This document shows positions 11,601-64,000 of a stretch of DNA of 64,000 bases, in pieces. A program made the position numbers and the translations under genes. The stretch comes from Candidatus Acidulodesulfobacterium sp. GTDB taxonomy: Bacteria > SZUA-79 > Acidulodesulfobacterales > Acidulodesulfobacteraceae. The DNA lies in contig JBMFVW010000001.1 in the NCBI GenBank assembly GCA_049965795.1, positions 53,917 through 117,916 of the forward strand, in the 5' to 3' direction. The notes under the pieces are model-generated. The model saw only the letters and a program-made list of their open reading frames with translations, was not told where the DNA came from and did no database searches. Position 1 is the first letter of the stretch. Each line of letters opens with the position of its first letter.

Positions 11601-11776
11601 TGGCAAGAATACAGCAAAAATCGTTTTTTAAAAGGTTTTTTATAGCGAAACGAGGAATAAAAAAATGGCAAATAATAAAATAAAATTTATATTGCAACAC
11701 AAACGCACTTCGATAATTGACAGAAATCGGTATAAATGGTATTATTTATATATTAAAGATACTACTATCCGATTAT

Positions 11777-14500: not shown

Positions 14501-16135
14501 TTACGCTTTTATAAGTTTTGTATTTCTGTAATTTAATGCTTCCAATACTGAATCTGCATCTATTTTTTCTTTCACGTCGAGGTCTGCTATAGTCCTGGCA
14601 ACGCGCAATATTCTATAGTAGCCTCTCGTGGAAATATTTAATCTTTTTACGGCGTTTTGGGCAAGATTAAGAGCTTCATTAGTTGCGCTAAAATGTGTTT
14701 CTATATCTGCGCTTTTTACCGACGAGTTAAATCTGATACCGGTATTTTTATATCTGTCTATTTGAATATTTCTTGTTTTTTCGACTAATTTTTTAATATC
14801 GGCGGAACAAGGAATATCTGCCTTAACTCTTAATTCCTCTAAATCAGCAGGATAAATCTCTATAAATATGTCGAATCTGTCGAGAATCGGACCCGATATT
14901 TTGGTATAAAATTTATAAATTTCTGCGCTTGAACATTTGCACTCATGCTTAGTATCGCCGTAATATCCGCAAGGGCAGGGATTCATTGCTGCTACAAGCA
15001 TAAAATTGCTCGGCAGGATTATAGAAAAACGGCTCCTCGACAAATTAATATATTTATCTTCCATCGGCTGCCTTAAGCCGTCTATAGTTTTTCTGTTAAG
15101 TTCGGAAAATTCGTCTATAAAAAGAACTCCGTTATGCGCGAGGCTTATATCGCCGGGCAGAGGGTTTGAACCTCCGCCTCCGCCTATCAATCCGGCAAGT
15201 GATGCCGTATGATGCACCTCAATAAAAGGTCTTCTTAATATAAGTCCTATTTCCTCGACGCCGTTTTTTTTATTTTTATTTGAAAAACTATAAATATTAG
15301 AAGTCTCCAGCGATTCCTCAAGCGATAAGTCCGGCTGAATGCCTGCTATGCTGTGCGCAAGCATAGTTTTTCCGCTTCCCGGAGGACCTATCATTAATAT
15401 GTTGTGATGCCCGGCTACCGCAGTTAAAACAGCTCTTTTAGCAAGTTCCTGTCCCTTGATTTCCGCAAAATCGATATACCGCTCCCGCTCCTTTTTAGCT
15501 GCTTTTGCGTTTTCGATAATATTTTTAAAGTAAATATTTTCATCATTATTTTCGTAATTTATATTTATCTTACTCTTATTATTGAAATAAATCTGCGATT
15601 CTTTTTCTTCTTTTTCAAAATAAGCCGTTTCTCCCGAAATAAACATGCATAATTCTTTTAAACTGCCGAACGCCGCAAAATCGACTCCGAGAAATTTTGC
15701 CGCGTTTATATTTTCATAAGGGATAATTAACTTTTTATTTATTTTTTTAGCAAGTATTCCAAGAGCAATTATGCCGTTAATCTTTTTTATTTTTCCGTTT
15801 AAAGACAGTTCTCCGGCGATTATATAATCGTTAAGATTTAAGGCGCATTTTAGAAGTCCTGCGGAAATTAAAATACCGACGGCAAGAGGCAGGTCGAATA
15901 TCGGACCTTCTTTTCTTATATCTGCGGGGGCAAGATTAATAGTTATTTTTTTTACCGGATATTCAAAACCGGAATTTTTTATCGCGGCTCTTACTCTGTC
16001 TTTTGCCTCTTTAGTGGAAACATCGGGGAGTCCTACTATCATAATACCGGGTATGCCGCCCGATATAAAAACTTCTACGTTCACGGGAACGGCCTCTATT
16101 CCGATAAAAGTCGCGCTGTTTAAAGCCACTATCAT
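14501..16135 (-). CDS. comM: ComM/YifB-family Mg-chelatase-like AAA+ ATPase (competence-associated helicase family)
   Basis: N-terminal Lon-protease-like ChlI domain. Walker A 'GPPGSGKTMLA', Walker B 'VLFIDEF', zinc-binding 'NPCPCGYYGD..HECKC'. C-terminal Mg_chelatase_C-like segment. Confidence 0.92.
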   Translation of the reverse strand: MIVALNSATFIGIEAVPVNVEVFISGGIPGIMIVGLPDVSTKEAKDRVRAAIKNSGFEYPVKKITINLAPADIRKEGPIFDLPLAVGILISAGLLKCALNLNDYIIAGELSLNGKIKKINGIIALGILAKKINKKLIIPYENINAAKFLGVDFAAFGSLKELCMFISGETAYFEKEEKESQIYFNNKSKININYENNDENIYFKNIIENAKAAKKERERYIDFAEIKGQELAKRAVLTAVAGHHNILMIGPPGSGKTMLAHSIAGIQPDLSLEESLETSNIYSFSNKNKKNGVEEIGLILRRPFIEVHHTASLAGLIGGGGGSNPLPGDISLAHNGVLFIDEFSELNRKTIDGLRQPMEDKYINLSRSRFSIILPSNFMLVAAMNPCPCGYYGDTKHECKCSSAEIYKFYTKISGPILDRFDIFIEIYPADLEELRVKADIPCSADIKKLVEKTRNIQIDRYKNTGIRFNSSVKSADIETHFSATNEALNLAQNAVKRLNISTRGYYRILRVARTIADLDVKEKIDADSVLEALNYRNTKLIKA

Positions 16136-16198
16136 AATACCGAAACCTCTTTTTTTAATAAATAATTTTAAAATCCTTCTTATTTATTATAAAAAAAA

Positions 16199-16267
16199 AA
16201 TGTTTCAGAATTATGACAAATATGTTACGATTGCGTTAAATTTTTATTACGATTGCGTTACAATATC
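16199..16267 (-). promoter_or_regulatory. Putative extended -10 promoter plus two perfect 14-bp direct repeats upstream of comM (copy 2 of the shared motif)
   Basis: Plus strand has TTACGATTGCGTTA at 16225..16238 and 16247..16260 (22-bp period). Minus strand has TTGTCATAAT about 64 nt upstream of the comM start. Collinear with 11533..11600. Confidence 0.5.
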
Positions 16268-16675
16268 TTATAATCTCCAGCCTTTATCTAATGCAAGCCT
16301 GTTTATTTCGGATAAAACGTCCGCAACGTTTTTTAAATCTTTTAAAAGTGTCGAGGAAATAATATAATCAAAAGCATCTTCGTAAAATTCTTTAAAATCT
16401 CCGATTATATTCATTGAACCTTCAAAATCGGTCCCCGGCAGAAAAAGATAAACAATATCGTTTTTAACGGATACTACGTCAGAATCTCTCAAAACGCCGC
16501 TTAATGTTTTTAAAAAATCGTCGTTGTATTTTTTTATATTTAAAATAACTATAGACACATAATCTATAGCCGCTAAATCTTCGGCAAGCCTTAGCTCTTT
16601 TTGTATCCTTCTCATATTGCAGGCCGAGTGATCGAAAACCGGTTCAAAATATTCAAAGGGAAAAAATTTAGCCAT
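16268..16675 (-). CDS. Hypothetical cytoplasmic protein (135 aa)
   Basis: Clean ORF in operon-like position upstream of comM. I recognise no motif. Confidence 0.5.
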   Translation of the reverse strand: MAKFFPFEYFEPVFDHSACNMRRIQKELRLAEDLAAIDYVSIVILNIKKYNDDFLKTLSGVLRDSDVVSVKNDIVYLFLPGTDFEGSMNIIGDFKEFYEDAFDYIISSTLLKDLKNVADVLSEINRLALDKGWRL

Positions 16676-16763
16676 AACTGCCTCCGCTATTATTTTTATT
16701 TTTATTATATATCACAGACTATGCGTAATTACTGGCAATAGTCAAAATCATATTAATATTATA

Positions 16764-18125
16764 TCAGAAAAAATAAGCTAAAAGGGTTTTTTCGGAAACG
16801 CCTCCGCCTTCTATTCTCCAAACCGGTTTTTCCACGACTAAAGCCGATAAAGCAATCTTCTTTTTACCTGCTTCTCCGAAACCGGCAAACCACTGGTATA
16901 GACCTGTAGGATTATTTCCGGATATAGTTCCGGTTTTTCCTCCCGCTACAACGCCTGGAAGCATATAGCTGCCGTTGTAGCTGTAAAAATCGGGATGCGC
17001 TATCCCGTTAGTAACGGTTGCTATCATCATCTGTTTTAAAACATAAGCCGTTTTTACCGTAATAGGATTGCCTATAACCTTAACACCGCTGTGTTTATAA
17101 ATAATTTTGCCGGTTGCCGAAATGATTTCTTTTATTATATATGGTTCAATTAATCTCCCGCCGTTTATTGCGGTGCCGGCAATCATTGCCGCCTGAATCG
17201 GCGTTATCTTAACGTTTTCAAAGCCTGCGCCGGTAAGTTCCAATTGATAAAATTTTCTGGGTATATATGCTTTACTTTCCTGCAAATTTAATATAAAAGG
17301 TATTTTTTTATTGAAATTAAATTTATTGAAATAACGGGACAGCAGTTTTCTTCCTACATAATACCCTGCAATTTTTCCGAAAGCTACGTCGCATGATTTA
17401 GCAAACGCTTCTTTAAAAGATATATCGTTAGAACCTGTTCCTATATTTTGCTCCCAGTTTGTTTTATCGGTTCCGTAAAGCGTGCCGTTAAAACAGATAT
17501 TTAATCCGGGGTAAAAACCTTTGGATTCGATAGCTGCAGATGCCGTAATTATTTTTACGATTGAGCCTGGGGGATAAGCTAAAAGCGGCGAAATCTCGGC
17601 TGATTTCTTTTTATTATAAGCATAAGAAGCAAAACCCAATACTGCACCAGTTTCAGGATTAACGGCGGCAAGCACACCGTACGGCACTGCATATTTTTTA
17701 AATACTTTTTCGGCTTCTTCTTGAACTGAAGGATTAACTGTATATACTACGGTATAATTTCCTATTTTTTGGATATATCGTCCGTTTTTAATCGTTTTGA
17801 AAACCGGATTATGATATTTAAAATACCGCTTAAGAGATTTTAGCGAATTTACGCTGCCGGAACTGAAATCGTTAAATCCCCGTTTTTTTAAAACGGCGGA
17901 AGCCTTAATAAATTTTATAGGCCTTATGCCCGTTCCAAGCACGGGTTTATTATTCGACAAGAAAAAATGCCTGCCATAATAATAGAACTTAACGAAACCG
18001 AATAGAAAAGCGGATGCAAGAGCCAACAGCACTATATACTTGGCAAAATAAACAAACCTGTTTTTCTTATTTTTTCTTTTATTAAGCGTCCGCTGGTATG
18101 ATTTCCAGTCTTTTATTCTTTCCAT
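16764..18125 (-). CDS. Penicillin-binding protein, transpeptidase type (class B-like)
   Basis: N-terminal membrane anchor. Active-site SxxK as 'GSIVK' and a 'KTGT' box near the C-terminus. Confidence 0.8.
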   Translation of the reverse strand: MERIKDWKSYQRTLNKRKNKKNRFVYFAKYIVLLALASAFLFGFVKFYYYGRHFFLSNNKPVLGTGIRPIKFIKASAVLKKRGFNDFSSGSVNSLKSLKRYFKYHNPVFKTIKNGRYIQKIGNYTVVYTVNPSVQEEAEKVFKKYAVPYGVLAAVNPETGAVLGFASYAYNKKKSAEISPLLAYPPGSIVKIITASAAIESKGFYPGLNICFNGTLYGTDKTNWEQNIGTGSNDISFKEAFAKSCDVAFGKIAGYYVGRKLLSRYFNKFNFNKKIPFILNLQESKAYIPRKFYQLELTGAGFENVKITPIQAAMIAGTAINGGRLIEPYIIKEIISATGKIIYKHSGVKVIGNPITVKTAYVLKQMMIATVTNGIAHPDFYSYNGSYMLPGVVAGGKTGTISGNNPTGLYQWFAGFGEAGKKKIALSALVVEKPVWRIEGGGVSEKTLLAYFF

Positions 18126-32608: not shown

Positions 32609-32954
32609 CGGCCGTAAGCAAAATCGTAAGCCGGGTTCTGTATATGCCGGTCATTTCTCTGTGCGAACAACCCGAAGACCTTACAAGGCGAGCAGCCTTG
32701 ATCTTCCTATTTGTTCTTGCTCCTAACGGGGCTTGCCATAGACATTATTTGCATAATGCCTAAGTGAGCTCTTACCTCACTATTTCACCCTTACCTCTTT
32801 ACCGTTTCGGCAATTAAGAGGCGGTATATTTTCTGTTGCGCTTTCCTTAAAGTCGCCTTCACCGGTTTAAAACGGCGTTATGCTCTTTGGAGCCCGGACT
32901 TTCCTCAAAAAACAAAGAGTTTTTTGCGACCGACCGCTTTTGCTTACGACCGAC
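32609..32954 (-). ncRNA. rnpB: RNase P RNA (bacterial type A)
   Basis: The minus strand contains 'GAGGAAAGTCCGGGCTCC', 'GGTAAGGGTGAAATAGTGAGGTAAGAGCTCAC' and 'ACAGAACCCGGCTTACG'. The P1 helix pairs 5' CGTAAGCAAAA with 3' TTTTGCTTACG. End coordinates are +/- a few nt. Confidence 0.9.
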
Positions 32955-34215: not shown

Positions 34216-35328
34216 TTATTTAAATTTATTAACAGGGCTGTTTTCTCCGCTATTTTCAAAAACCGGAATATTAGAATTAAACTCTTTTACTATTATATCT
34301 TTAGTTATTTCGGTAAAATATTTTTCGGTATCGAAATGGGACATTTCAATAAGGGATATACCGCTCATATTTGCCTTTATTGCAGTACTGTGTTTTAATT
34401 CTGAAGATATAAAAAGATCGCATCCTGTTTTTATAGCATTTTCTATAAAAGAAAATCCGCTACCGGATACTACGGCGATTTTTTTTATTTTTTTATTTAG
34501 TTTACCGCAGTAATTTATAAAAACAGGGGAAAAAATATCGCTAATATTCTCCAAAATTTCACCAAGAGTAACGGTACTTTCTAAATTACCAGCCGCACCT
34601 ATTCCTGTTTCTTGTCCTCCGAAATCGTATAACGGAAAAATATCGAAAGCGGCTTCTTCATAAGGATGGACTTTCTTCATTTCTTCTACCGCCTGCTTTA
34701 TAAATCTTTCTTCTATCAATATTTCTACTTTAGATTCATCGACGAAAGAAGTTTTTCCCGATTCTCCTATAAAAGGGTCTGAGCCCGATAAAGGTTTAAA
34801 AGAGCCTTTACCTTTAGTCTCGAAAGAGCAATTTTCATAGTTTCCTATTTTTGGATTTCCGTATTTAAAAAGAGTCTCCCTGACCGCTCTTACATAGCCT
34901 TTTGGTATAAAAACAGATAATTTATAGAGATTTCTTTTACTTAATACCAAAGGCATAATTTCCTTTGCCGACAGTTTATTCAGAATATAGCGGCTCATAG
35001 AATATACCGAGGAATCGAAATTTGTATGCATAGCATAAACGCAGATTTTATTATTTATTAGAACTTCGGAAAATCTGCCGGACGGCGAGTTTAAGTCTAT
35101 AAAGCGCAACGGATGAAAAAAGAGCGGATGATGAATCAATATAAGGTTGGAATTGGTTTTAAGCGATAAATCTAAGGACTTTTTAGAGAGGTCTAACGAT
35201 GTTACTATGCCTGTTACCGGCGAATTTGATAATTTTACCTGATAACCCGAATTATCCCAATCTTCTTGCAAGTCGGGCGGTATCAGGTTTTCTAATTTAT
35301 CTGCTACATCTTTTATAAATAATGACAT
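34216..35328 (-). CDS. NIF3-family dinuclear metal-centre protein (YqfO/YbgI, GTP cyclohydrolase 1 type 2 homologue)
   Basis: 'EDWDNSGYQV', 'ILIHHPLFF' and a C-terminal 'SHFDTE'-type motif. The start is moved to Met32 (35328) because the first 31 codons of the tracked ORF read through a tRNA gene. Confidence 0.88.
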   Translation of the reverse strand: MSLFIKDVADKLENLIPPDLQEDWDNSGYQVKLSNSPVTGIVTSLDLSKKSLDLSLKTNSNLILIHHPLFFHPLRFIDLNSPSGRFSEVLINNKICVYAMHTNFDSSVYSMSRYILNKLSAKEIMPLVLSKRNLYKLSVFIPKGYVRAVRETLFKYGNPKIGNYENCSFETKGKGSFKPLSGSDPFIGESGKTSFVDESKVEILIEERFIKQAVEEMKKVHPYEEAAFDIFPLYDFGGQETGIGAAGNLESTVTLGEILENISDIFSPVFINYCGKLNKKIKKIAVVSGSGFSFIENAIKTGCDLFISSELKHSTAIKANMSGISLIEMSHFDTEKYFTEITKDIIVKEFNSNIPVFENSGENSPVNKFK

Positions 35329-35336
35329 TTTTAAAA

Positions 35337-35412
35337 TGGTGGGCCCACCCGGGTTCGAACCAGGGACCAACCGGTTATGAGCCGGCCGCTCTACCAGCTG
35401 AGCTATAGGCCC
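35337..35412 (-). tRNA. tRNA with CAT anticodon (elongator Met or lysidine-modified Ile2), CCA encoded
   Basis: Reverse complement is GGGCCTATAGCTCAGCTGGTAGAGCGGCCGGCTCATAACCGGTTGGTCCCTGGTTCGAACCCGGGTGGGCCCACCA. It folds as a full cloverleaf. The anticodon stem lacks the three G-C pairs of an initiator tRNA. Confidence 0.9.
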
Positions 35413-35420
35413 TAAATCCA

Positions 35421-37349
35421 CTACTTCACAAATGTTTTAAGCCTTTTGGAACGGCTCGGATGCCTGAGCTTCCTAAGTGCTTTTGCTTCTATCTGTCTTA
35501 TTCTTTCTCTTGTAACTCCAAACTCTTGCCCGACTTCTTCTAATGTATGGTCGGATTTAATTCCTATTCCAAACCTCATGCGCAAAACTTTTTCTTCCCT
35601 TTCCGTAAGAGAAGAAAGAACTTTTCCCGTCTGCTCTTCAAGGTCTGAATTTATTGCCGCTTCCAAAGGCAAAACGGTCGTTTTATCTTCAATGAAATCG
35701 CCGAGGTGCGTATCTTCTTCTTCGCCTATCGGAGTCTCAAGGGAAATAGGCTCTTTTGCTATCTTTAAAACCTTTCTTACTTTGTCTATAGGCAGATCCA
35801 TTCTTTCGGCAATTTCTTCAGGAACAGGCTCTCTTCCTATTTCCTGAACTAAAGCTCTCGAAGTCCTGATCAGTTTGTTTATGGTTTCTATCATATGGAC
35901 TGGTATCCTTATAGTCCTTGCCTGATCGGCAATCGCTCTGGTAATAGCCTGTCTTATCCACCACGTAGCATATGTAGAAAACTTATATCCTCTTTGATAC
36001 TGAAATTTTTCGACGGCTTTCATAAGACCAATATTGCCTTCCTGAATCAGGTCTAAAAATTGAAGTCCTCTATTGGAATATTTTTTTGCTATAGAAACCA
36101 CGAGTCTCAAATTAGCTTCTACCAGTTCGGTCTTTGCCGCTTTGGACTTCTCTTCGCCTATTTTTATAGCTTCGACTATTTTTTTAAGTTCGACTTTGGA
36201 TACCCCTACTTCTTTCTCGGAAGCCGCAATCTTTGTCTTATATTCGTTTATGAGCTTATTAATGCTTTCGTGGCGTTTATGCTCCTGCGATTTAGACTGT
36301 CCACCGATTTCGTTTTTCTTATTATAAGCGGATTCAAGCTCTTTAATGCTTTCTTCGAATTCCGATATTTTTATATTATGATTTTTAAGCCTCATTATAA
36401 CTTTATCGGATATTTTCTTTTTAAGCCTTAAATCTTTAATGTAGCCGAGTATTTTTTTCTTTGATTCAGCCGTTAAATTTTTATGCCCTACCCACGAAAT
36501 TGATTTTGAAGAGCTATCCGAATCTATATCCGCTATATTATCTTCATCCGAGTCTATTTCGTCCGAACTTTCTTCCCTAAAAGCAATTTTATTTTTCTTT
36601 GATTTTTTTGAGGTATTTTCGGTTTTAGATTTATCTTCCTTATATTTTACCTCTTTTTTTATTTTTTCAATTATGGATAAAAATCTGGCTTCCGCTTTTT
36701 CTATATCCTTCTCGCTTGGAAAATCAACGTCGTCGAAATCGGAAACTATGCCGGTAATATTTAAATCGCCGTTTTTTAATTTATCTCCTATCGATATAAC
36801 CCAGCGGATTAAAATATCTGAATTTAAAACGGACGAAAAAATTTCTTCTTCCCCTTCCTCAATGCTTTTTGCAATTTCTATTTCTCTTTCACGCGTAAGC
36901 AAAGCGACCGACCCCATTTCTTTTAAATACATCCTTACGGGGTCGTTAGTTTTAAGGGATAAATCTTCTTCTTCTTCTAATTCTTCGCTAAAAATTTCGT
37001 CATCGGCAAACTTAGAAGAAGACTTGGCGAAAATAGAAGAGGCGTCTCTGCCGATCTCTATATCTTTTTCCCCGAGCATGCTTATTAAATCGTCTATCTG
37101 ATCGGAAGAAACTATATCCTGAGGTAAAATATCGTTAAATTCGTCGTAGCTTAATCTGCCGCCGGAACGTTCTTTAGCTTTCTCTATGCTTTTATTTAAA
37201 ATTAACGTTTCTATTTCTTTTTCCTTTTTCTGTTTTTTTAAAGTATCCGACGGTTTTTGTTCTTTAACGGCATTATTTTTATCGGCTTTATTTTTTGCCT
37301 CTGCCTTATTTTTATTATTTTTTTTATTTTCTATGTTTTTTTTAGTCAT
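35421..37349 (-). CDS. rpoD: Primary sigma factor RpoD (sigma-70)
   Basis: Regions 1.2 to 4.2 are recognisable: '[17 protein letters not shown]', '[13 protein letters not shown]', '[30 protein letters not shown]'. Long Lys/Glu-rich N-terminal and non-conserved regions. Confidence 0.97.
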
Positions 37350-54886: not shown

Positions 54887-56134
54887 ATGTTCGTAAAAGG
54901 TTTAAAATGCAGGGAATGCGGCAAAGAATATCCTGACAGTCCGCTTTATGTTTGCGATTATTGTTTCGGTCCGCTTGAAGTGGATTACGATTACGATAAA
55001 ATCAAAAAAGAAATAACGAAGGAAAAAATAAAATCGCGCGATGCAAATATGTGGCGTTATCAAGAACTTCTCCCTATCAAAGGAGAAATAAAAATAGGCA
55101 AAAACGTCGGATATACGCCTCTTGTAAAAGCGGATAATCTTGCAAAAGCTCTCGGCGTTAAAGAAATATACGTTAAAAACGATGCCGTAAACTTTCCTAC
55201 CCTATCTTTTAAAGACAGAGTCGTTTCGGTAGCCATTGCAAAGGCGAGAGAATTCGGTTTTAAAACCGTCGCGTGCGCATCGACCGGCAACCTTGCAAAT
55301 TCCGTTGCCGCATTGGCAGCTTCCTCAAGCTACGAAAGTTTTGTATTTATACCGTCGAATCTTGAAACGGGGAAAGTATTGGGAACTCTTATATACGACA
55401 CCAATCTCGTTAAAATTAACGGCAGTTACGATAAAGTCAACAGGCTCTGCACCGAAATCGCCGGCAAACACAGCTGGGCATTCGTAAATATCAACTTAAG
55501 ACCTTATTATGCCGAAGGCTCAAAATCTCTTACTTTCGAAATGCTCGAACAGTTAGGATTCAAAGCTCCGGATAACGTCGTAGTTCCAATGGCAGGCGGC
55601 TCTTTAATAACAAAAGTCGGCAAAGCCATTGACGAATTCGACTACTGCGGACTGCTTAACGAAAAACCGCATACGCGAATTTTCGGGGCGCAGGCAACCG
55701 GTTGCAACCCTATAACCTCAACCGTCAAAGAAAAAAGAGAATTTATAAAACCGGTAAGAACTCCGGATACTATTGCAAAATCGCTTGCAATCGGCAATCC
55801 TGCCGACGGCTACTATGCATCAGACCTGATGAATAAAACCGGCGGGTACGGCGAAGATGCAACAGACGAAGAAATAGTAGAAGGCATGAAGCTTCTTGCC
55901 GCAACCGAAGGCATATTTACCGAAACTGCGGGGGGCGTTACAGTTGCAGTAGCTAAAAAACTCATAGAAAAAGGCTATATAAACAAAAACGAAACGACGG
56001 TTCTTGCTATTACCGGAAACGGGCTTAAAACTCTAGAAGCCCTAAACGGAAAATTAAAAGAAGCTCCGGTTATCGAAGCCAACTTAGAAGAATTTGAAGG
56101 AGTTCTCTCTAAAATTAAAAGAAAAGGTAAATAA
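54887..56134 (+). CDS. Threonine-synthase-family PLP enzyme with N-terminal zinc ribbon; predicted sulfur-carrier-dependent homocysteine synthase rather than ThrC
   Basis: 'CRECGKEY..CDYCFGPLE' ribbon. PLP lysine 'PTLSFKDR' and 'ASTGNLANS'. First gene behind a SAM riboswitch and followed by sulfur-carrier genes. Confidence 0.8.
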   Translation: MFVKGLKCRECGKEYPDSPLYVCDYCFGPLEVDYDYDKIKKEITKEKIKSRDANMWRYQELLPIKGEIKIGKNVGYTPLVKADNLAKALGVKEIYVKNDAVNFPTLSFKDRVVSVAIAKAREFGFKTVACASTGNLANSVAALAASSSYESFVFIPSNLETGKVLGTLIYDTNLVKINGSYDKVNRLCTEIAGKHSWAFVNINLRPYYAEGSKSLTFEMLEQLGFKAPDNVVVPMAGGSLITKVGKAIDEFDYCGLLNEKPHTRIFGAQATGCNPITSTVKEKREFIKPVRTPDTIAKSLAIGNPADGYYASDLMNKTGGYGEDATDEEIVEGMKLLAATEGIFTETAGGVTVAVAKKLIEKGYINKNETTVLAITGNGLKTLEALNGKLKEAPVIEANLEEFEGVLSKIKRKGK

Positions 56135-56182
56135 TTGATTATATTAAAATAATTTTAATTATAAAATAAAAGGAGGATAAAA

Positions 56183-56698
56183 ATGCCTATAAAAGTAAGA
56201 ATACCCACGCCGCTTAGAACTTTAACCGGTGGAAAAGCGGAAGTGGAATCTAACGGTTCAAATATTATCGAAATAATTAACGATTTAGAGAAAAATTTTT
56301 CGGGAATAAAAGAAAGAATATGCGAACAGAACGATCAGGTAAGAAGATTCGTGAACGTTTATCTTAACGACGAAGACATAAGATTTATAGACAATATAAA
56401 TTCAAAGGTCAAAGACGGCGATACTATTTCCATAATTCCGGCAATAGCAGGCGGCGCGCCCGAAAAAAAAAAGTTTTATCTTAACTATCCGCAGGAAGTA
56501 ATTAAAGAACCGCTAATTTATCTTGTCGGAAAAAACTACAACGTTATCACTAATATCAGAAGCGCAAGCATATCCAACGATATAGGGATAATAGCAATAG
56601 AACTCGAAGGCGAAACCAAAGATATAGAAAAAGCGGTTAAATTTTTGGAATCCAAAGGCGTAACGGTAGAACCTATCGTTCTCGACGTCGTAGAATGA
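56183..56698 (+). CDS. CysO/MoaD/ThiS-type sulfur-carrier domain with internal Gly-Gly, fused to a C-terminal NIL-like domain
   Basis: Residues 1-92, 'VRIPTPLRTLTGGKAEV...DLEKNFSGIKERI...RFVNVYLNDEDIRF...DGDTISIIPAIAGG', closely parallel mycobacterial CysO as I recall it. The ~78 aa after the GG resemble the NIL domain of MetN-type proteins. Confidence 0.75.
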   Translation: MPIKVRIPTPLRTLTGGKAEVESNGSNIIEIINDLEKNFSGIKERICEQNDQVRRFVNVYLNDEDIRFIDNINSKVKDGDTISIIPAIAGGAPEKKKFYLNYPQEVIKEPLIYLVGKNYNVITNIRSASISNDIGIIAIELEGETKDIEKAVKFLESKGVTVEPIVLDVVE

Positions 56699-56707
56699 TA
56701 AATTTGC

Positions 56708-56738
56708 GACAGGGACAGAATTAAATTCTGTCCCTGTC
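56708..56738. repeat. REP-like palindromic unit (perfect 15-bp arms), possible intra-operon attenuator/stabiliser
   Basis: GACAGGGACAGAATT-A-AATTCTGTCCCTGTC, 10 nt after the stop of the carrier gene. Followed only by TTT and then an A-run. Confidence 0.75.
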
Positions 56739-56762
56739 TTTAAAAAAGCGGAGGAAGGAAAA

Positions 56763-57566
56763 TTGAATTTTACCGAAGAACAGATTAAAAGATATGCAAG
56801 GCATATTATACTTCCGGAAGTCGGAGGAGAAGGACAGGAAAAACTTCTTTCGTCAAAAGTTCTTCTTATCGGCGCCGGAGGATTAGGCGCTCCCTGCGGA
56901 TATTACCTCGGGGCTGCCGGAATAGGCACTCTCGGCATAGTCGATTACGATACGGTTGATTTGTCTAACCTGCAAAGACAGATTTGGCACGGAAACGCCG
57001 ACGTAGGAAGATATAAGGTGGACTCTGCCAAAGACTCGATAGAACGCATTAACCCAGACGTAAAAGTTATTCCTTATAAAGAAGGCATAAATATAAACAA
57101 CATTAAAGATTTAATAAAAGAATACGACGTAATAATAGACGCGACCGATAATTTCCCGACGAGATATTTAATTAACGACGCCTGCCATTTTATGAAAAAA
57201 CCTCTTGTTTACGGTTCTATTTTCAGGTTTGACGGACAGGCAACAGTATTTTTGCCGGATGAAGGTCCATGCTACAGATGTCTTTTTCCAACCCCTCCGC
57301 CTGCAGGTCTCGTCCCCAGCTGTCAAGAAGCCGGAGTGCTCGGCGTTCTTCCCGGGGTTATAGGAGCTATTCAGGCAAACGAAGCTATAAAAATAATTCT
57401 GGGCATCGGACAGACTTTAAACGGAAGGCTTCTTATTTATGACGCTCTCGATATGAAATTTACCGAAATGAAACTCAGGCAGGATAAAACTTGCCCGCTT
57501 TGCGGCGAAAATCCGACGGTATTAGAATTGATTGAATACGGCGACCTTTGTGAATTTAAGAATTAA
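56763..57566 (+). CDS. MoeB/ThiF/MoeZ-type E1-like adenylyltransferase (no rhodanese domain)
   Basis: 'RYARHIILPEVGGEGQEKL', nucleotide loop 'LLIGAGGLGAP', 'NLQRQ', and zinc CxxC pairs 'CYRC' and 'CPLC'. TTG start. Confidence 0.9.
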   Translation: MNFTEEQIKRYARHIILPEVGGEGQEKLLSSKVLLIGAGGLGAPCGYYLGAAGIGTLGIVDYDTVDLSNLQRQIWHGNADVGRYKVDSAKDSIERINPDVKVIPYKEGININNIKDLIKEYDVIIDATDNFPTRYLINDACHFMKKPLVYGSIFRFDGQATVFLPDEGPCYRCLFPTPPPAGLVPSCQEAGVLGVLPGVIGAIQANEAIKIILGIGQTLNGRLLIYDALDMKFTEMKLRQDKTCPLCGENPTVLELIEYGDLCEFKN

Positions 57567-57625
57567 ACTTAACGACGGAGCAGCGGAAAAGGTGCCGGAT
57601 TTATTTATTAAACTTAACAACGGAG
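57562..57625 (+). repeat. 19-bp direct repeat (1 mismatch) flanking a 26-bp copy of the GGTGCCGGATTT repeat module
   Basis: ATTAAACTTAACGACGGAG (57562..57580) and ATTAAACTTAACAACGGAG (57607..57625). The insert CAGCGGAAAAGGTGCCGGATTTATTT matches 44947..44970. Confidence 0.7.
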
Positions 57626-57632
57626 TAAAAAG

Positions 57633-57881
57633 ATGTCCGAATATAAAGAAAACGAGGAACTAAATATAAAAGGCGAGATATGCCCGTTTACTTTCGTTAA
57701 ATCTAAACTTGTTTTAGAAAAAATGAAAAAGGGCGAAATTTTAAGAGTAATAGTAGATTACGAACCTGCAATAAGAAACGTACCCCGCTCTATGGAAGAA
57801 CAGGGCCATAAAGTATTATCCATAAATAAAATAAACGAAACCGATTACGAAATTATCGTTGAAAAAGATGGAAAAAAATAA
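57633..57881 (+). CDS. TusA/SirA-family sulfurtransferase
   Basis: 82 aa with the conserved 'GEICPFTF' Cys-Pro motif near the N-terminus. Confidence 0.85.
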   Translation: MSEYKENEELNIKGEICPFTFVKSKLVLEKMKKGEILRVIVDYEPAIRNVPRSMEEQGHKVLSINKINETDYEIIVEKDGKK

Positions 57882-58815
57882 ATCCTGTTTTAATATTTTT
57901 AATATTTCAGATATTTTTAATTCGGCATCCAATATAGGCGGCACAGGAATAGTCCTGTTAAATAAAATCGTTAAAACTTCCTCGCACGGTTCAAAATTAT
58001 ATGCAAAACTCGAAGGTCTTAATCCGGGAGGCTCCGTAAAAGACAGGCCTGCGCTCTATATGATAAAAAACGCCGTAGAAAAAGGTTTAATAAAAGAAAA
58101 TACCTCTATAATAGATTCGTCTTCCGGAAATACTGGAATTTCCTATGCAATGATAGGAGCGCTTCTCGGCATAAAAGTTAAAATTTACGCTCCCTCAAAT
58201 ATGAGCGAAGAAAGAAAAAAAATAATGCGTCTTTACGGAGCGGAATTAATACTTACCCCCGCCGAAGAAAGCCATGACGGAGCTATAAAACGGGCGGAAG
58301 AAGAATATAAAAAAGGCGGCAAAGATGTTTACTATATGCCGGACCAGTACAATAATTCTTACAACCCCATATCCCATTATGAAACAACGGCAGTCGAAAT
58401 TATTAAACAAACAGGCGGGAATATCGATTATTTTGCTACAGGCATAGGGACCGGCGGAACAATATTGGGAGTAGGAAAAAGACTTAAAGAATATAACGAT
58501 AAAATAAAAATTATAGCCGTTGTTCCCGACAGCGAAATGCACGGCATCGAAGGATGGAAATACAACTATTCTTTAAATTTCGACGGATTCAACGCCGATA
58601 AAATTATAGACGATTTTGTTAAAGTGGATACAGAAGGCAGCTATGATGCTTTAAAAAGACTCGTAAAAGAAGAAGGTATCCTGTGCGGATTTTCTTCAGG
58701 CGCCAACGTCTACGGAATACTTAAGCTTACTGCTAAATATAAAGGTAATTTTGCTACGGTACTTCCGGATACCGGTTCAAGATATCTTTCAACAAGAGTT
58801 TTTTCGGAGTTTTGA
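57859..58815 (+). CDS. cysM: Cysteine synthase family PLP enzyme (CysM/CysK-like; likely thiocarboxylate-dependent)
   Basis: 'NPGGSVKDRPA' PLP-lysine motif, 'SSGNTGIS' and 'GIGTGGT'. The true start may be Met4 (57868). Confidence 0.88.
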   Translation: MKKMEKNKSCFNIFNISDIFNSASNIGGTGIVLLNKIVKTSSHGSKLYAKLEGLNPGGSVKDRPALYMIKNAVEKGLIKENTSIIDSSSGNTGISYAMIGALLGIKVKIYAPSNMSEERKKIMRLYGAELILTPAEESHDGAIKRAEEEYKKGGKDVYYMPDQYNNSYNPISHYETTAVEIIKQTGGNIDYFATGIGTGGTILGVGKRLKEYNDKIKIIAVVPDSEMHGIEGWKYNYSLNFDGFNADKIIDDFVKVDTEGSYDALKRLVKEEGILCGFSSGANVYGILKLTAKYKGNFATVLPDTGSRYLSTRVFSEF

Positions 58816-58876
58816 TTAACATTTTAAGTAATAACTGATTGGCAGATACGTTAAAATAAGGATATAATATATTATT

Positions 58877-59308
58877 ATGGCTATTATAATTCCAAAAAGC
58901 GAACTAGAGATTATAAAAAAGCATGCGGCTGATATTTTTCCATATGAAGCATGCGGCGGACTTCTGGGAAAAATAGAAGGGGAAAACAAAATTATAGTAA
59001 AAACCTATCCTGCGGAAAATCGCTACGGAAAAATAACTTGGGACAGTTTTGAGATAGAACCTAAGGATATATTGGAAATGGATAAATTTTGCATGAAAGA
59101 AAATCTCGATATTCTGGGATTTTACCATACGCACCCAAACCATCCGGCAGTCCCTTCCAACTTTGATATCAACGCTTCCTGGCCTTTTTACTCATACGTA
59201 ATTATTTCCGTAAAAGGAAATACCCCAGAAAAAGTAGCAGACATTAAAAGCTACCTTATGCCCGACAGAACCGCCGTTCCGACCGAAGAAGAAGTTATAA
59301 TAAGCTGA
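58877..59308 (+). CDS. JAMM/MPN+ metalloprotease (Mec+/HcyD-like)
   Basis: 'EACGGLLG' (Glu) and 'GFYHTHPNHPAVPSNFD' (HxHx7Sx2D JAMM motif). Confidence 0.88.
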   Translation: MAIIIPKSELEIIKKHAADIFPYEACGGLLGKIEGENKIIVKTYPAENRYGKITWDSFEIEPKDILEMDKFCMKENLDILGFYHTHPNHPAVPSNFDINASWPFYSYVIISVKGNTPEKVADIKSYLMPDRTAVPTEEEVIIS

Positions 59309-60551
59309 AATTTTTAGGAGAAAACGACAAAACATTTTGTATAACTTCAGGATTGCCTTTCCTTCCGGAAAGCCACCTTTTTTTCCAATATTCTATAAGA
59401 TCATCTACACTATAATTAAAATATTCCAATTCATCCGTGCGTCCGTTTAAAAAATCCAAGGAATTATATGCCAAAGGCACATAATATATATCTCTTTTAA
59501 TAGAATGATTTAAAAGAAAATTAGCGTCTAATCCATAATTTTCTAAAAATCTAAGGGCTTTTTTAATAAACCTGAATTTATAATTTGAACCGTCCCCGAA
59601 TTTATATCCTACCTCCTTGCCTTCTTTAGTTTTCAATAAATTTTTTAAAAGTTCGTTAGTGCGATTAGAAAATTGAAAAGTACCGAAACCTTTAGTCTGG
59701 CCTATTCTTTTATAGAGCAGTTCGCCGTTATATTTTATCCTATTGTACTGCGAACTCTTACCGTATAAACTAGTAGTAAAAATTGCCGCTAGATTTGATG
59801 ATTTTCTCTTGTTAATTATAGTAGTCCGATTCAAATATTTATTTTGAAAAATTTCCATAACTTCTTTTGACGCCATTGTATAAGCAATTAATTTCCCGCC
59901 AAGTAGATAAGAATATGGTGGTACTGCGCCGCACACATAAAGATCCATACAGTAAACTAAATTTTTATTTTTAGTTTCCCTATCCCACCCGATAAAATCG
60001 TCTCTTTCCGGTATTCTTATAATTGAACTGCCCAATGCAGCAATTCCTATAACAGGTTTATAATCTATAGCCGCATCTCTTATAATAAATTTAATCCGTC
60101 TTCCGACATATTCGCTGTAAGGACTCGACCAAGTATATCTTAACATTCTAAACAAATCTCTTTGTTGCTGAGTTTCGCATATTTCGATAATAGGGGAGAT
60201 AACGGAGTTAAAACAATCATATCCATTTGCAATATTTTTCGTAAATATCTCTCTATTTTTATTGATAAAATAGGCATTTTTATTTATAATTTCTTCTTTT
60301 CTGGGAAGAATTAAATTTCTTATGAAATCTTTATCATTTAAATCCGAAGCATTATTTTCAAATTGAAATTTACCTTTTTCATAAGAAAATTTAAAATTTA
60401 ATGCGGAAATATCACTGCAGACAGAAGCGACAATATCATTTTCTAACTCGGATGACTCTAATCCTAATCGGTCTATTGGCTGATTTTCAATTTCGATATT
60501 TTGCGTCAATACCGGTAGAGGAAAGTAATTAAAATTATCGTCAAAAGGCAT
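59295..60551 (-). CDS. DUF4338-like (DruA-type domain) protein, third gene of the NurA/HerA operon
   Basis: Core (~aa 135-295): 'VGRRIKFIIRD...PVIGIAALGSSIIRIPERDDFIGW...LGGKLIAYTM...TTSLYGKSSQYNRIKY...IGQTKGFG'. This follows the block order I recall for Pfam DUF4338. Not verified by HMM. Confidence 0.55.
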   Translation of the reverse strand: MPFDDNFNYFPLPVLTQNIEIENQPIDRLGLESSELENDIVASVCSDISALNFKFSYEKGKFQFENNASDLNDKDFIRNLILPRKEEIINKNAYFINKNREIFTKNIANGYDCFNSVISPIIEICETQQQRDLFRMLRYTWSSPYSEYVGRRIKFIIRDAAIDYKPVIGIAALGSSIIRIPERDDFIGWDRETKNKNLVYCMDLYVCGAVPPYSYLLGGKLIAYTMASKEVMEIFQNKYLNRTTIINKRKSSNLAAIFTTSLYGKSSQYNRIKYNGELLYKRIGQTKGFGTFQFSNRTNELLKNLLKTKEGKEVGYKFGDGSNYKFRFIKKALRFLENYGLDANFLLNHSIKRDIYYVPLAYNSLDFLNGRTDELEYFNYSVDDLIEYWKKRWLSGRKGNPEVIQNVLSFSPKNFSLL

Positions 60552-60553
60552 GT

Positions 60554-62683
60554 TTATTTTTGATTCATTTTTTCATTCCATTTAAAGGTAGGTATGCAGA
60601 CAAAAGGCTTAGATTCTTCTTGCCCATTCATAAAATGCGGACCCTGAAGTATTTCAATTTCGTCTTCAATACAATCAAATATATAGCTAAATATTGGTTT
60701 ATACAGGTCGTCTTCTTTTCTGATTTCGTTTTTAAACTCTTCTTTTTCCTTAACATCACGCACTATATAATATAATCTGCCTTTTAAAATGCCGGTTTTA
60801 TTTTTATCGCTAAAATCTTGAGTCTTAAGTTTATTGTTTTTAAAATCGCTCTTTATAACTCTGAATACTTCCTCGGCCATTAATTTTATACGCTCGTTAG
60901 ATCTTTTAACAACTAACATGGCCGTAGAATTTTCATATTTTTTATTACTTTCGGGATTGCCTTCTTTTACTATATATTTTTTGTAAAGGCTTTCAAAACT
61001 TCGTATTCTGACCGGCAGGACAAAAGGCTGAAGAGGCGCGCTCCACATATAGCAATTTCCTATTATAGGCTCGTTAATAATATTTAAAATAATATCCTTT
61101 GAATAAAAGGAATTATATCTTTGCAAAATGGAGGCATCGCCTTCCGATAAAACGTGAAAAACGAACCAATTATCCGATTGACTTAATATTTCCGGAGCTA
61201 TGGAGCCAGGCTGCTGGGTAACCATAATAGCGCCTAAATCATATTTTCTACCCTCTTTAACCCATTCTACAAAAGGGCTTGTTTCAGAAAGCGATTTGCC
61301 TAAAACACTCTGCGCTTCCTCCATTATTGCAATAACGGGAATAGAAGAACCGTCTCCGGTGAAATTTTCCTGATTAAAATTAAATATATTTCTCATTATA
61401 AGTCCGGCAACATTATTACCTGCGGTTGAACTCAGCAGACTTATATCCACTATTACGACCCTGCCTTCTTTCAGTAAAATTTCTACTTCCTCTACTAATC
61501 TGCTGTTCGGATCGTGCAAATGACTTACTAAATTATACATGTTGCTTTTTGCGGCACTTATCTCGGCTGATTGACCTGAAGCAGCATCTTTGTTATAGCC
61601 CATAATCTTGGCTATCTCTTTATCGTCCGCCTGCATTCCGTCTTTTTCTATAATATCCACCAATTTTTTCCAATTATCTATTTTTAGACTTTTTAATTTA
61701 ATAATATTTTGCTGCTCCTGCCTGTCTGGCGAAATTGCTATGCCTATAACGTCCCTTGGCAAAAGAGACTTAATATTAAGTTTAACGTCTCCCGCCTTCC
61801 AACTGCCATAATATGTACTTATAGATTTCCTGTTCGTAAAAACAGCAATAATGTCTTTTAAGTGAGGCACATCGCACAAGGCAGGCCTGTTTTTATTATC
61901 CGGCCAAAAATATTCTCCGTCTGGATCAAATATTAAGGTCCCGACTTTTTTATTTTTATCCGTTACAGCATATTTTCCGTTATCTTTATAAAGTTCCGAA
62001 ACCAGATATTTAATTAGATTTGATTTCCCGTAACCCGCTCTTGCAAATACTACCGACCTTTTAGAAACAATATTATTTATATTAAATTTAACGTTAAGAT
62101 TAGGTTCTATATACTGAAAATTAGAAAGATAATCATGTACACCCGTGTTAGCGTTATTGTCGGTGTTTTTTCCGGAATATATAAATTCGCCGAGTACGTA
62201 ATTGCCAAGATCTGTTTCCCCCTGGCTTAGCGAACATAACTCCCTTAATACTTCATCGCTTGGAAGCGAAACTTTAGCACCAAGATGCGGTATCCTGCGC
62301 AGCGAAGGTATAAAAATAATCTTATCTTTCGACTGCTCGACCTGCACTATTTTGACGGCGCCGAGCAGTTTAATCTGCACCTTATATTTTAACTTATCTT
62401 TTTTTAAATCGTCCGGCACAGTCTGCCCTCTTTTTTGAAGTGCCATAATATAGTCTTCGCCTTCTACCGATGAAAGAAGACCTGCGGGGGCAAAATTTGT
62501 TATTCTGGCAAGAGAGGCCTCAAGAGGGTTTGCAAGCTCTATTAATAAAAATTGACCTAATTGCGGTCTTTCAAGCATACGCGCATCATATGGAGTAACG
62601 ACTTCGGCTGAAAATTCGTAACCTGATTCCACCGAGCCCTTAAAGATACCCATTAAATCAGATTTTGCAAATAGTTCAAGCAT
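60554..62683 (-). CDS. HerA-like FtsK/HerA-superfamily ATPase
   Basis: N-terminal HAS-barrel-like segment. Walker A 'ARAGYGKSN', Walker B 'VIAIMEEAQSV', 'IMVTQQPGSI' and 'NWFVFHVLSEGD', in HerA order. C-terminal extension of ~130 aa that I do not recognise. Confidence 0.8.
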   Translation of the reverse strand: MLELFAKSDLMGIFKGSVESGYEFSAEVVTPYDARMLERPQLGQFLLIELANPLEASLARITNFAPAGLLSSVEGEDYIMALQKRGQTVPDDLKKDKLKYKVQIKLLGAVKIVQVEQSKDKIIFIPSLRRIPHLGAKVSLPSDEVLRELCSLSQGETDLGNYVLGEFIYSGKNTDNNANTGVHDYLSNFQYIEPNLNVKFNINNIVSKRSVVFARAGYGKSNLIKYLVSELYKDNGKYAVTDKNKKVGTLIFDPDGEYFWPDNKNRPALCDVPHLKDIIAVFTNRKSISTYYGSWKAGDVKLNIKSLLPRDVIGIAISPDRQEQQNIIKLKSLKIDNWKKLVDIIEKDGMQADDKEIAKIMGYNKDAASGQSAEISAAKSNMYNLVSHLHDPNSRLVEEVEILLKEGRVVIVDISLLSSTAGNNVAGLIMRNIFNFNQENFTGDGSSIPVIAIMEEAQSVLGKSLSETSPFVEWVKEGRKYDLGAIMVTQQPGSIAPEILSQSDNWFVFHVLSEGDASILQRYNSFYSKDIILNIINEPIIGNCYMWSAPLQPFVLPVRIRSFESLYKKYIVKEGNPESNKKYENSTAMLVVKRSNERIKLMAEEVFRVIKSDFKNNKLKTQDFSDKNKTGILKGRLYYIVRDVKEKEEFKNEIRKEDDLYKPIFSYIFDCIEDEIEILQGPHFMNGQEESKPFVCIPTFKWNEKMNQK

Positions 62684-63818
62684 TCTTATAACGCGCCTCC
62701 GTTAAATTGCGGTGCAGATATTTCATTCTGTATATACTTTCTCTTTCGGATTCTGTAAGTGTCTTGCTTATTCCTTCTATCAGCATATCTTCTAACAATT
62801 CTACTTCTATTCCGTTAATTTTTGCGTGCCCGTGAGCATTTTGAATACTAAGCGGGAAATCAGGTATTGGAAAACCCAGCCTTGCGTCATGAAGCAACTG
62901 TCCCAGAATCATTTCGGCATTTTCGATGTCCCAAGCGGCAATATCTACCGGCCATACTGGATCGTAAGCACCGTCTCCGAATTTAACGAGAAATAGCTTG
63001 CCCATAGATGCATATTTTTGATTTTCTTCTTCTGTAGAAACATCGTCAAAAGTATTAAACCAAGTCCTGTCGTAATTATAACAGTACTGCTCAATTTCAT
63101 CAGGAACTTTCACATAGCATGAATAAGGCAGCTTAAAAACATTTTCTATGGCAAGGGCAAGCGATAGCCTGCTTATAACTGCGCTTTCTTTTGCTACTCC
63201 AACAACATTAACGTTTATATTTCTTTTTTGCTTATGCTCTTCGCACTTTTCTTTTATTTTTTTATCCAATTTAGGAAATATAGTATTTTTAATAGATTTT
63301 GTCCTGAGTAAACCTTCTCTTATTATTATTGTATTATTTCCCCAATCGTTATATAAAAAATCGTATAAAATAGCCCATTCTACTATATCCCGATAAACCT
63401 TAACCGCCGCCGCCGTCTTGTCCTGCTGCCCAATTCCCGCCAATAAATATGAAATGTCGCTTAATCTGTTTAAACCTAGATCGGCGCATAAACGTTTAAG
63501 CGGTTTAATTCTTTCGACTCTTTCGTTCAAATTAGTCGCATTAGAATTGCCGAAAATCGGATCTATAGCACACTGGACGCCCCTTGAATCCACAACTCTT
63601 ACAAGCTCAAGCACGCAAGGATTGAATTTTATATTATTATTACCGCCGTCTGCAGAAACGAACGACACTGCAGTAGCAGTATAAGGCCTTAAAATTTTTA
63701 TATTGTCTTTAATTTTTTTCGCAAAATTCCGCAGCTCTTTTACTACCGGCTCTTCGGTAGCTTTATAAGACATTTCTATTTGATATCTTATTAAATCTAA
63801 ATTGTCGTCGGAGAGCAT
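62676..63818 (-). CDS. NurA-like nuclease (RNase H-like fold), first gene of the operon
   Basis: Blocks in NurA order: 'VSADGGNN' (cf. DGS), 'TIIIREGLL' (cf. hhhhDGSL), 'VVGVAKESAVIS' (cf. GhSKxS) and 'FPLSIQNAHGHAKI' (cf. YPxxLxxA[DH]xxA). Its stop overlaps the HerA start by 8 nt. Confidence 0.6.
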   Translation of the reverse strand: MLSDDNLDLIRYQIEMSYKATEEPVVKELRNFAKKIKDNIKILRPYTATAVSFVSADGGNNNIKFNPCVLELVRVVDSRGVQCAIDPIFGNSNATNLNERVERIKPLKRLCADLGLNRLSDISYLLAGIGQQDKTAAAVKVYRDIVEWAILYDFLYNDWGNNTIIIREGLLRTKSIKNTIFPKLDKKIKEKCEEHKQKRNINVNVVGVAKESAVISRLSLALAIENVFKLPYSCYVKVPDEIEQYCYNYDRTWFNTFDDVSTEEENQKYASMGKLFLVKFGDGAYDPVWPVDIAAWDIENAEMILGQLLHDARLGFPIPDFPLSIQNAHGHAKINGIEVELLEDMLIEGISKTLTESERESIYRMKYLHRNLTEARYKNA

Positions 63819-64000
63819 TAGTAAATTTGTTAAATATTTTTAATATTTTCTTTATTTTATTGTTTTTTATTCAAAAGGTTCAATATTTATATAATTGCAT
63901 TAATTTGACAAACTGCGTCGAACTTATCCTCTTGGCTTACTTATATAAAATATAAGCGTCTTTGATTTCAACGTAAAAAAGTTCCTATAACGCTGATAGG

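Follow-up and report, generated by a model that had tools for sequence, protein, structure and literature searches.

The 64,000-nucleotide stretch of Candidatus Acidulodesulfobacterium sp. analysed here (assembly GCA_049965795.1, contig JBMFVW010000001.1, positions 53,917 to 117,916; hereafter the window) carries, at 59295-63818, three closely packed minus-strand open reading frames (ORFs), whose coordinates agree exactly with those of an earlier reading of the letters alone (the original prediction). These encode a TdpB-type nuclease of the NurA superfamily with an RNase H/PIWI-like fold (g1, 62676..63818, 380 aa), a TdpA-like HerA/FtsK-type ATPase and predicted translocase (g2, 60554..62683, 709 aa), and a DruA (DUF4338) protein with a GNAT-like predicted fold, the proposed self-marking component (g3, 59295..60551, 418 aa). 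Building on the homologies, catalytic motifs, gene order, partner swapping and mobility observed for this trio, we propose, as a reading with roughly an even chance of being right, that it forms a horizontally mobile Tdp-type anti-invader cassette resembling a restriction-modification (R-M) system, in which the HerA/NurA pair destroys any DNA that lacks a self-mark set by DruA. Modelled on TdpAB, the ring ATPase encoded by g2 would move along duplex DNA, and the g1 nuclease would dock on this ring and degrade the DNA fed into it; complex formation and DNA degradation by the two proteins are thus expected by analogy. DruA, as a GNAT-fold transferase, would attach a covalent mark to host DNA, probably on a base rather than on the backbone, at which g1 and g2 would be stalled or excluded. 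It would thereby substitute for TdpC of the Tdp system, or for the SPPY methyltransferase of sister loci.

The nearest relatives of both g2 and g1 are found in TdpABC, a system reportedly described by An et al. in 2025 (Nat Chem Biol 21:1160). According to two citing papers, it is an R-M system based on phosphorothioate, for whose formation tdpC is sufficient, with the consensus GpsATC (PMC12914056, PMC13223576), and the TdpAB entries in the PDB (8wet, 8wfd and 8y1k) include the title "TdpAB in complex with AMPPNP and DNA". The source locus in Thermus parvatiensis RL (L009), which contains a 100% match to the TdpA fragment, consists of a 344-aa ORF, TdpB (375 aa) and TdpA, in that order. The 344-aa TdpC matches the PAPS-reductase/PP-loop family PF01507 (E 5e-14) and carries an SGGKDS motif, ruling out an initial suspicion that DUF4338 was the family of TdpC and the trio a plain Tdp system.

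The g2 product matches the Pfam DUF87/HerA model (E 8e-27), as had been expected of a profile search, and is also recognised by PADLOC and NCBIfam HerA models, including the PADLOC anti-phage HerA models. Of the features first claimed for it, three motifs are present, namely Walker A GYGKS at residues 217-221 (with K220), Walker B MEEAQ at 454-458 and QQPG at 490-493, together with KEGRKY at 476-481. Among PDB sequences, its best match is TdpA (8wet_A, E 1.2e-20), with Sulfolobus HerA (4d2i, 6e-12) trailing, and by BLASTP it is 24% identical to the full-length TdpA of T. parvatiensis across 523 aa (E 1e-24), a level that points to remote homology and not to orthology. NCBIfam models of repair HerA reach 35-54 bits on g2, against cut-offs of 800-970. 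The C-terminal tail of about 140 aa (residues ~570-709, window 60554-60970) extends past the end of the TdpA homology, and no similarity to this segment was found; a clade of short HerA proteins (545-625 aa), which is also DruA-linked, lacks a tail of this type.

For g1, no match exists in the Pfam (E up to 1), NCBIfam, PADLOC or PHROG models, so that the Pfam NurA hit anticipated by the original prediction did not appear and its NurA-like character holds at the level of fold. PADLOC 2.0 has no model for this protein. Against PDB sequences, its sole match is TdpB (8wet_G, E 0.039), which a 42-sequence g1 profile also retrieves marginally (E 0.046); g1 and TdpB are 23% identical across 127 aa, as remote homologues; an alanine racemase match of the same profile was judged spurious. 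The AlphaFold2 model of g1 (pLDDT 75.8, pTM 0.77) retrieves TdpB as the first Foldseek match (8wfd_G, E 1.2e-9, probability 1.0, TM 0.53/0.56, 377 aligned columns) and P. furiosus NurA as the next best (3tal_B, E 9e-3, probability 0.92); weak matches to Argonaute PIWI domains come after these. In an alignment of 68 family members that includes true TdpB, D57, E147, D/E168, G169, K210 and H329 are conserved, and D57, singled out earlier as a key residue, is invariant together with K210. The candidate catalytic residues D57, E147, E168 and H329 follow the same order as Asp51, Glu105, Asp126 and His411, the catalytic residues of P. furiosus NurA (PMC3300031), so that g1 retains the D-E-D/E-H pattern of NurA. 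This fold match and the conserved catalytic residues place g1 in the NurA superfamily as a TdpB-type protein whose predicted active-site residues are intact.

The trio and TdpABC therefore share a HerA-like TdpA and a NurA-fold TdpB encoded by overlapping genes in the order B-then-A, and both are three-gene cassettes whose third product is an enzyme (for DruA, as read here). They differ in that the 344-aa PP-loop protein TdpC is encoded upstream, whereas the window has a 418-aa DruA downstream; in addition, identity between TdpA/TdpB and g2/g1 is 23-24%, and g2 exceeds TdpA in length by about 120 aa. An hmmsearch found neither a TdpC-like ORF nor a methyltransferase of the partner family described below anywhere in the window, which leaves DruA as its one candidate modifier. 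Because the window contains no phosphorothioate enzyme, the self-mark, if there is one, would differ chemically from that of TdpABC, and because TdpC is the defining feature of the Tdp system, the trio is best classified from its sequences as a Tdp-like variant and not as a TdpABC member. The original prediction, which knew of no system coupling a HerA-NurA pair to DUF4338, had overlooked TdpABC as the closest one, although the trio itself is undescribed in the accessible literature; a named system of exactly this composition had been considered as a refutation, and TdpABC differs from it in that TdpC is not DruA.

The third protein, g3, matches Pfam DruA PF14236 (E 7e-65; cut-off 27 bits), in line with the DUF4338 assignment predicted for it, as well as the PADLOC DruA model (8e-79), and is annotated by NCBI as 'Druantia anti-phage system protein DruA'. 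It shares 33% identity (E 7e-54) with a DruA that P. putida plasmid pKF715A encodes within a canonical Druantia type I operon (L090). A DruA profile found nothing meaningful among PDB sequences, and the AlphaFold2 model of g3 (pLDDT 79) has no strong Foldseek match in the PDB; the leading matches are all GNAT-fold proteins (E 7e-3 to 1), comprising malonyl-CoA decarboxylase (7e-3), TmcA (2e-2) and Kre33/NAT10 (4e-2; probability 0.8), with further weak matches to GCN5, Eis, LasI and acyl-homoserine lactone synthases. TmcA and Kre33/NAT10 are nucleic-acid cytidine N4-acetyltransferases. The fold search agrees weakly with the assignment of DUF4338 to the GNAT fold by the Aravind group (PMC10853773).

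When DruA proteins of Druantia type I, of both HerA-linked groups and of one phage are compared, G150, R151, D159, R183-D184, W189, P211, K220-L221, Y269, R271, R353 and R397 are invariant, a core that argues for a single conserved catalytic activity. The segment PPY...LLGGKL is likewise invariant; in the g3 model it follows a beta-strand and starts a helix, and we read it as occupying the position of motif A, where GNATs bind the pyrophosphate of acyl-CoA. Within the same region (residues 211-221, about 59889-59921), the PPY triplet recalls motif IV, (D/N/S)PPY, of exocyclic-amino DNA methyltransferases, the preceding residue here being hydrophobic; this likeness may be a coincidence or may reflect a convergent pocket for a base amine. 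DruA-like genes also stand alone in the T4-like Pelagibacter myophages Mosig (L091 3554-4852) and HTVC008M, where they adjoin genes for a 2-oxoglutarate-Fe(II) oxygenase and MazG. At the fold level, DruA-like proteins are further encoded by an uncultured tailed phage and by Klosneuvirinae giant viruses (BFVD A0A3G4ZXG3, A0A5K0UAJ3 and A0A3G4ZRA1), two of the latter lying within proteins of 1150-1260 aa. Such lone viral genes resemble orphan modification enzymes, and we count them in favour of DruA being an enzyme.

A further argument for a writer role comes from the partners that replace DruA in related loci. GTDB species genomes were scanned with an alignment of the TdpA/HerA C-terminal region, and the best 80 of 577 relatives, together with loci fetched with g1, the sister metagenome-assembled genome (MAG) and the window, gave about 85 loci that were classified by iterative hidden Markov models. 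Two TdpA fragments, P0121 and P0124, lay on truncated or frameshifted contigs that proved uninformative. In every locus with enough flank, a TdpB-like gene lies directly upstream of a TdpA-like gene. The third slot is filled by DruA in 40 entries, corresponding to 37 distinct loci once duplicate contigs are removed, either downstream (B-A-DruA, the window type) or upstream (DruA-B-A). These loci are patchily distributed across phyla. In 16 loci, the slot is taken by a DNA methyltransferase of about 370 aa from a single family (Pfam N6_N4_Mtase), mostly 0-10 nucleotides (nt) 3' of the HerA gene and sometimes convergent or upstream, and the SPPY motif IV is intact in all of the adjacent partner methyltransferases. 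In two loci (L009 and L011), it is taken by a PAPS-reductase. The sharing of one slot by DruA, the SPPY methyltransferase and TdpC is counted here for DruA as a writer.

The methyltransferase loci (L044, L048, L051, L053, L057, L059, L062, L066-L069, L071, L072, L078, L079 and L084) come from Phycisphaerae, Chloroflexota, Firmicutes, Binatia and one Methanomassiliicoccaceae archaeon. They resemble the window in having a B-A module, from the sister HerA clade, with a third gene in the matching slot, and differ in carrying a classical exocyclic-amino DNA methyltransferase where the window has DruA; no description of this B-A-SPPY methyltransferase architecture was found in the literature. One of them, from a Phycisphaeraceae MAG (L053), contains two TdpB-like/TdpA-like pairs 2.7 kb apart (5560-8963 and 11640-13407), with methyltransferases between and upstream of the pairs and an apparently truncated second HerA. 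An ORF of 344-402 aa upstream of B in L033 and L047 was considered as a fourth type of partner and rejected as an antisense artefact, since it is rich in R, H and G and overlaps a 640-aa gene on the opposite strand.

In the HerA tree, DruA-linked modules fall into two separate clades. One, the clade of short HerA proteins, has the PAPS-reductase locus L011 as its sister and lies close to true TdpA; the other, which unites the window clade and the DruA-B-A clade, has the methyltransferase clade as its sister. The topology of the DruA tree is different, in that the DruA proteins of DruA-B-A loci group with Druantia type I DruA, and those of the window type are interspersed with DruA proteins of the distant short-HerA clade. 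The conflict is visible in single loci: L037 has a HerA close to that of the window (7e-245) and a distant DruA (4e-54), whereas L061 has a distant HerA (3e-44) and a close DruA (5e-128). The disagreement between the trees, along with the grouping of some DruA proteins with Druantia type I, indicates that the modules have been shuffled. DruA thus pairs with two unrelated helicase/nuclease machines, DruBCDE and the TdpAB-like pair, and the latter with three unrelated enzymes, as would be expected if writers and readers were exchangeable modules.

The distribution of the cassette is that of a mobile element. A large protein database contains more than 1,100 homologues of g1, most of them about 55% identical and found in Bacteroidota and other phyla, and in a library of 50%-identity representatives the family comprises 284 clusters at E <= 1e-3, making it widespread but not abundant. 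In a plasmid search, g1 had no match, and the TdpA fragment (tblastn) found distant HerA proteins only. In three distant genomes, the trio occupies three different contexts: alongside a large N6/N4 methyltransferase, a PIN protein and a ResIII helicase; with IS110 and Mutator transposases on either side; and with molybdoenzyme genes on either side. Its recurrence in many unrelated genomes shows that the arrangement is not due to chance. In a sister MAG (JAJZJX010000017, L088), the trio occupies the site that it has in the window, with a g1 that is 93% identical, and genes for a LexA-like S24 peptidase, a 274-aa N6/N4 methyltransferase and DUF6996/6997 (14599-16996) stand between DruA and the JAMM gene that follows it in both. 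Upstream of g1 in this MAG (1143-7935), genes encode Cas6, a CARF protein (Cas_NE0113), an MNT nucleotidyltransferase and a DUF234 ATPase, a gene content that marks a variable hotspot beyond the edge of the window. The flanks of 15 DruA-linked loci contain 100 ORFs, among which are six DNA methyltransferases, three GmrSD, one Mutator transposase, one HipA and one YhcG nuclease, the remainder being housekeeping genes. Judged from these sequences, the trio is an autonomous mobile cassette inserted at varied sites, sometimes in defence islands. Taken together with the TdpAB homology, the patchy spread across phyla and the variable, partly defence-rich flanks lend support to the anti-invader role first suggested for it.

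As to the mark itself, a preprint by Ojima et al. reports that Druantia type I in E. coli leads to a new PacBio signal, called as 'm6A' (N6-methyladenine), at CAGCTGNC in the host genome, although this system has no methylase domain, and the signal was tied to no particular gene (10.1101/2024.04.14.589459). A 2026 preprint cites the signal as modification of the host genome by Druantia type I (10.64898/2026.05.12.722862). We tentatively consider, as a possibility with clearly less than an even chance, that DruA represents a new type of DNA-modifying enzyme, GNAT-fold in structure, which writes a mark that is neither methyl nor phosphorothioate at specific sites, such as adenine or cytosine carrying an N-acyl group, and that this mark is the self signal read by two unrelated restriction machines, the TdpAB-like pair and the DruBCDE of Druantia type I.

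Several points weigh against the proposal that DruA marks self DNA for a Tdp-type nuclease machine. The Tdp mechanism is taken from citing papers, PDB titles and general background. The modifying activity of DruA is something that we infer from context and one preprint, and the signal at CAGCTGNC is a preprint observation with no gene assigned to it (10.1101/2024.04.14.589459); the original prediction, which had pictured a module of sensor/modifier, motor and nuclease, coincides in its modifier form with our model. The GNAT matches of g3 are weak, with a best E of 7e-3, a TM of 0.25 over the whole protein and, normalised by target, of 0.35-0.48 for small GNATs. According to the Aravind group, DUF4338 domains fused to DndF are variable N-terminal domains that could be effectors and not modifiers (PMC10853773). 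The locus sample, as the best 80 of 577 relatives, is not an unbiased census, and the HerA and DruA trees are rough, unbootstrapped neighbour-joining trees. In addition, about 22 B-A pairs (about a quarter) have no recognisable adjacent modifier, among them a whole Verrucomicrobiota/Planctomycetota clade (L010, L014, L015, L018, L022, L023, L030 and L081) and some members of the window clade, with L025, L033, L047 and L058 as further pairs of this kind, so that a linked writer is not obligatory for the machine. Just 3' of the pair in L010 lies a GmrSD-HNH gene, and L025 has an AAA_14/DUF4143 ATPase.

These writer-less pairs also count for the most probable of the alternatives, which we nonetheless regard as unlikely, namely that DruA is a sensor, specificity factor or loader that recognises invader DNA or protein and recruits or licenses HerA/NurA. 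Acyl-CoA might then be bound as a cofactor, and self DNA would be spared in some other way, for example because it offers no free ends. If many pairs operate without a linked modifier, the machine may have an intrinsic logic of self and non-self, of which end dependence, as in archaeal HerA-NurA, would be one form. The variable N-terminal and helical C-terminal regions of DruA could bind DNA or proteins, and Druantia III reportedly acts without host modification (10.64898/2026.05.12.722862). On the other hand, the DruA slot is otherwise filled by two proven families of DNA-modifying enzymes; the polar core of R151, D159, R183-D184, K220, Y269 and R271 is invariant and extends to the copies in phage and in Druantia, a degree of conservation suggestive of catalysis; and modification of host DNA has been reported for Druantia type I (10.1101/2024.04.14.589459).

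Alternatively, DruA could be a second effector, a GNAT acyltransferase toxin acting on a cellular or phage target such as aminoacyl-tRNA or a protein, which would cause abortive infection once HerA/NurA has sensed an infection; this we consider more doubtful than the sensor role. Toxins of the GNAT fold do exist, TacT and AtaT among them, and count for this explanation. So does the fact that in Sir2-HerA and DUF4297-HerA the partners of HerA are effectors (PMC11514289, PMC11291478). However, the cassette already has a nuclease effector whose catalytic residues are intact, the positional equivalents of DruA are modification enzymes and not toxins, and orphan copies in viruses would be odd for a host-killing toxin. 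The two HerA systems and the window share a HerA-family ATPase gene beside an effector gene, yet the window has a NurA-fold nuclease as the effector plus DruA as a third gene, g2 is nearer to TdpA than to the HerA proteins of those systems, and neither a Sir2 nor a DUF4297 domain was found in g1 or g3 with Pfam and PADLOC.

HerA-NurA complexes are known for end resection in archaea and Deinococcus-Thermus, and the locus might in principle be a housekeeping system of this kind for double-strand breaks, supplemented with an accessory protein. It has in common with them the HerA and NurA folds, both protein superfamilies and the residue pattern of the nuclease active site, and NCBIfam repair-HerA models do match g2 weakly. 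We nevertheless judge this explanation very improbable. The NCBIfam score is 54 against a cut-off of 800 bits, Pfam NurA leaves g1 unmatched, and among solved structures the closest are those of TdpA and TdpB, both defence proteins. End-resection loci are vertically inherited and linked to Mre11-Rad50, whereas the cassette lacks linkage to Mre11/Rad50, is mobile and patchy across phyla at about 55% identity, has shifting neighbours that include transposases and R-M genes, and is linked instead to genes for DruA, a methyltransferase or TdpC. The least tenable alternative, a decaying remnant of Druantia type I in which DruA happens to lie beside an unrelated HerA-NurA pair, has on its side the NCBI name of g3 and a Meiothermus plasmid with DruA, a DruE-like helicase and transposases that resembles such a remnant, and is effectively refuted by the tightly coupled recurrence of the trio in 37 distinct loci from many phyla, by the absence of DruB-E nearby (no ORF of the window being larger than 1108 aa) and by the intact and conserved state of all three genes.

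Druantia type I (DruABCDE), which was reportedly described by Doron et al. in 2018, shares with the window a full-length DruA with the same invariant core as g3, and differs in having DruB, DruC, DruD and a DruE helicase of about 1800 aa in place of the TdpAB-like pair. No DruB-E was found in the window or in loci L001, L003, L005 and L088. In the Meiothermus taiwanensis plasmid pMtWR-220 (L089 339-8164), DruA adjoins a 1807-aa DEAD/DEAH helicase resembling DruE, with transposase genes on the flanks and no annotated DruB-D; this is possibly a reduced or decaying Druantia locus.

The junctions within the window trio are those described in the original prediction. On the minus strand, the stop of g1 and the start of g2 overlap by 8 nt (ATGCTTGA, 62676..62683), which suggests translational coupling, and an overlap or abutment of B and A is also present in related loci. 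The stop of g2 is separated from the ATG of g3 by a 2-nt spacer (TAA-AC-ATG, 60549..60556, minus strand), and the methyltransferase partners of related loci occupy the matching slot, 0-10 nt 3' of the HerA gene. Upstream of g1, 182 AT-rich bases extend to the end of the window (63819..64000, minus strand) and are a candidate operon promoter; they contain three weak sigma-70-like matches (9/12 to the consensus, at the level of consensus alone), and the region is probably the promoter of the operon, cut by the window end. At the other end, the 3' end of g3 overlaps that of a convergent plus-strand JAMM gene by 14 nt (59295-59308), leaving no space for an intergenic terminator. A terminator scan of the window gave matches no better than the shuffled expectation; a terminator-like hairpin for the plus strand falls within g3, at 59357-59372. 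The G+C content is 0.30-0.34 across g3 and the end of g2, compared with 0.36-0.43 in the adjoining operon.

This adjoining operon (54887-59308, plus strand) encodes a ThrC-like pyridoxal phosphate (PLP) enzyme, a ThiS/MoaD-NIL sulfur carrier, ThiF, TusA, a CysK/M-like PLP enzyme and the JAMM protease, and is led by an S-adenosylmethionine (SAM) riboswitch (RF00162, 54694-54801, plus strand, 93.6 bits). From the riboswitch and the gene content, it is probably a SAM-regulated, protein-thiocarboxylate-dependent pathway to methionine or homocysteine with no functional link to the trio. A role as sulfur donor for phosphorothioation was considered and ruled out, as the window contains no phosphorothioate enzyme, as the trio has other neighbours elsewhere and as three genes intervene in the sister MAG; the last two observations also uphold the earlier view that this biosynthetic operon is unrelated. 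Elsewhere in the window lie a bacterial class A RNase P RNA (32611-32946, minus strand) and a tRNA (35340-35412, minus strand), the latter inside the listed ORF 34216..35421, whose GTG start is therefore probably miscalled.

In the accessible full-text literature on DUF4338/DruA with HerA, NurA or phosphorothioate, subscription papers being outside this scope, the trio is undescribed, and neither a Koonin-lab preprint on YprA nor the PADLOC paper discusses DruA and HerA together. The class formed by a HerA-like/NurA-like pair plus a modifier has been known since 2025; the DruA variant is new, and the methyltransferase variant is apparently new as well. Annotation pipelines label g3 "Druantia DruA" and overlook the trio, because g1 is unmatched in Pfam, NCBIfam, PADLOC and PHROGs.

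Druantia type I was among the first "new" defence systems (2018) and has DruA as its signature protein; the presence of DruA in a minimal three-gene cassette, in the slot of a methyltransferase or of TdpC, makes its function directly testable. The findings also suggest that the TdpAB motor-nuclease serves as a restriction module of general use with interchangeable writers. A system so far published for phosphorothioation in thermophiles would thereby extend to many phyla, possibly with a new DNA mark. If DruA does write a mark of a new kind, this would explain the 'm6A-like' PacBio signal of the methylase-less Druantia, and one TdpAB-like reader would accept three chemically different writers, based on phosphorothioate, methyl and the DruA mark.

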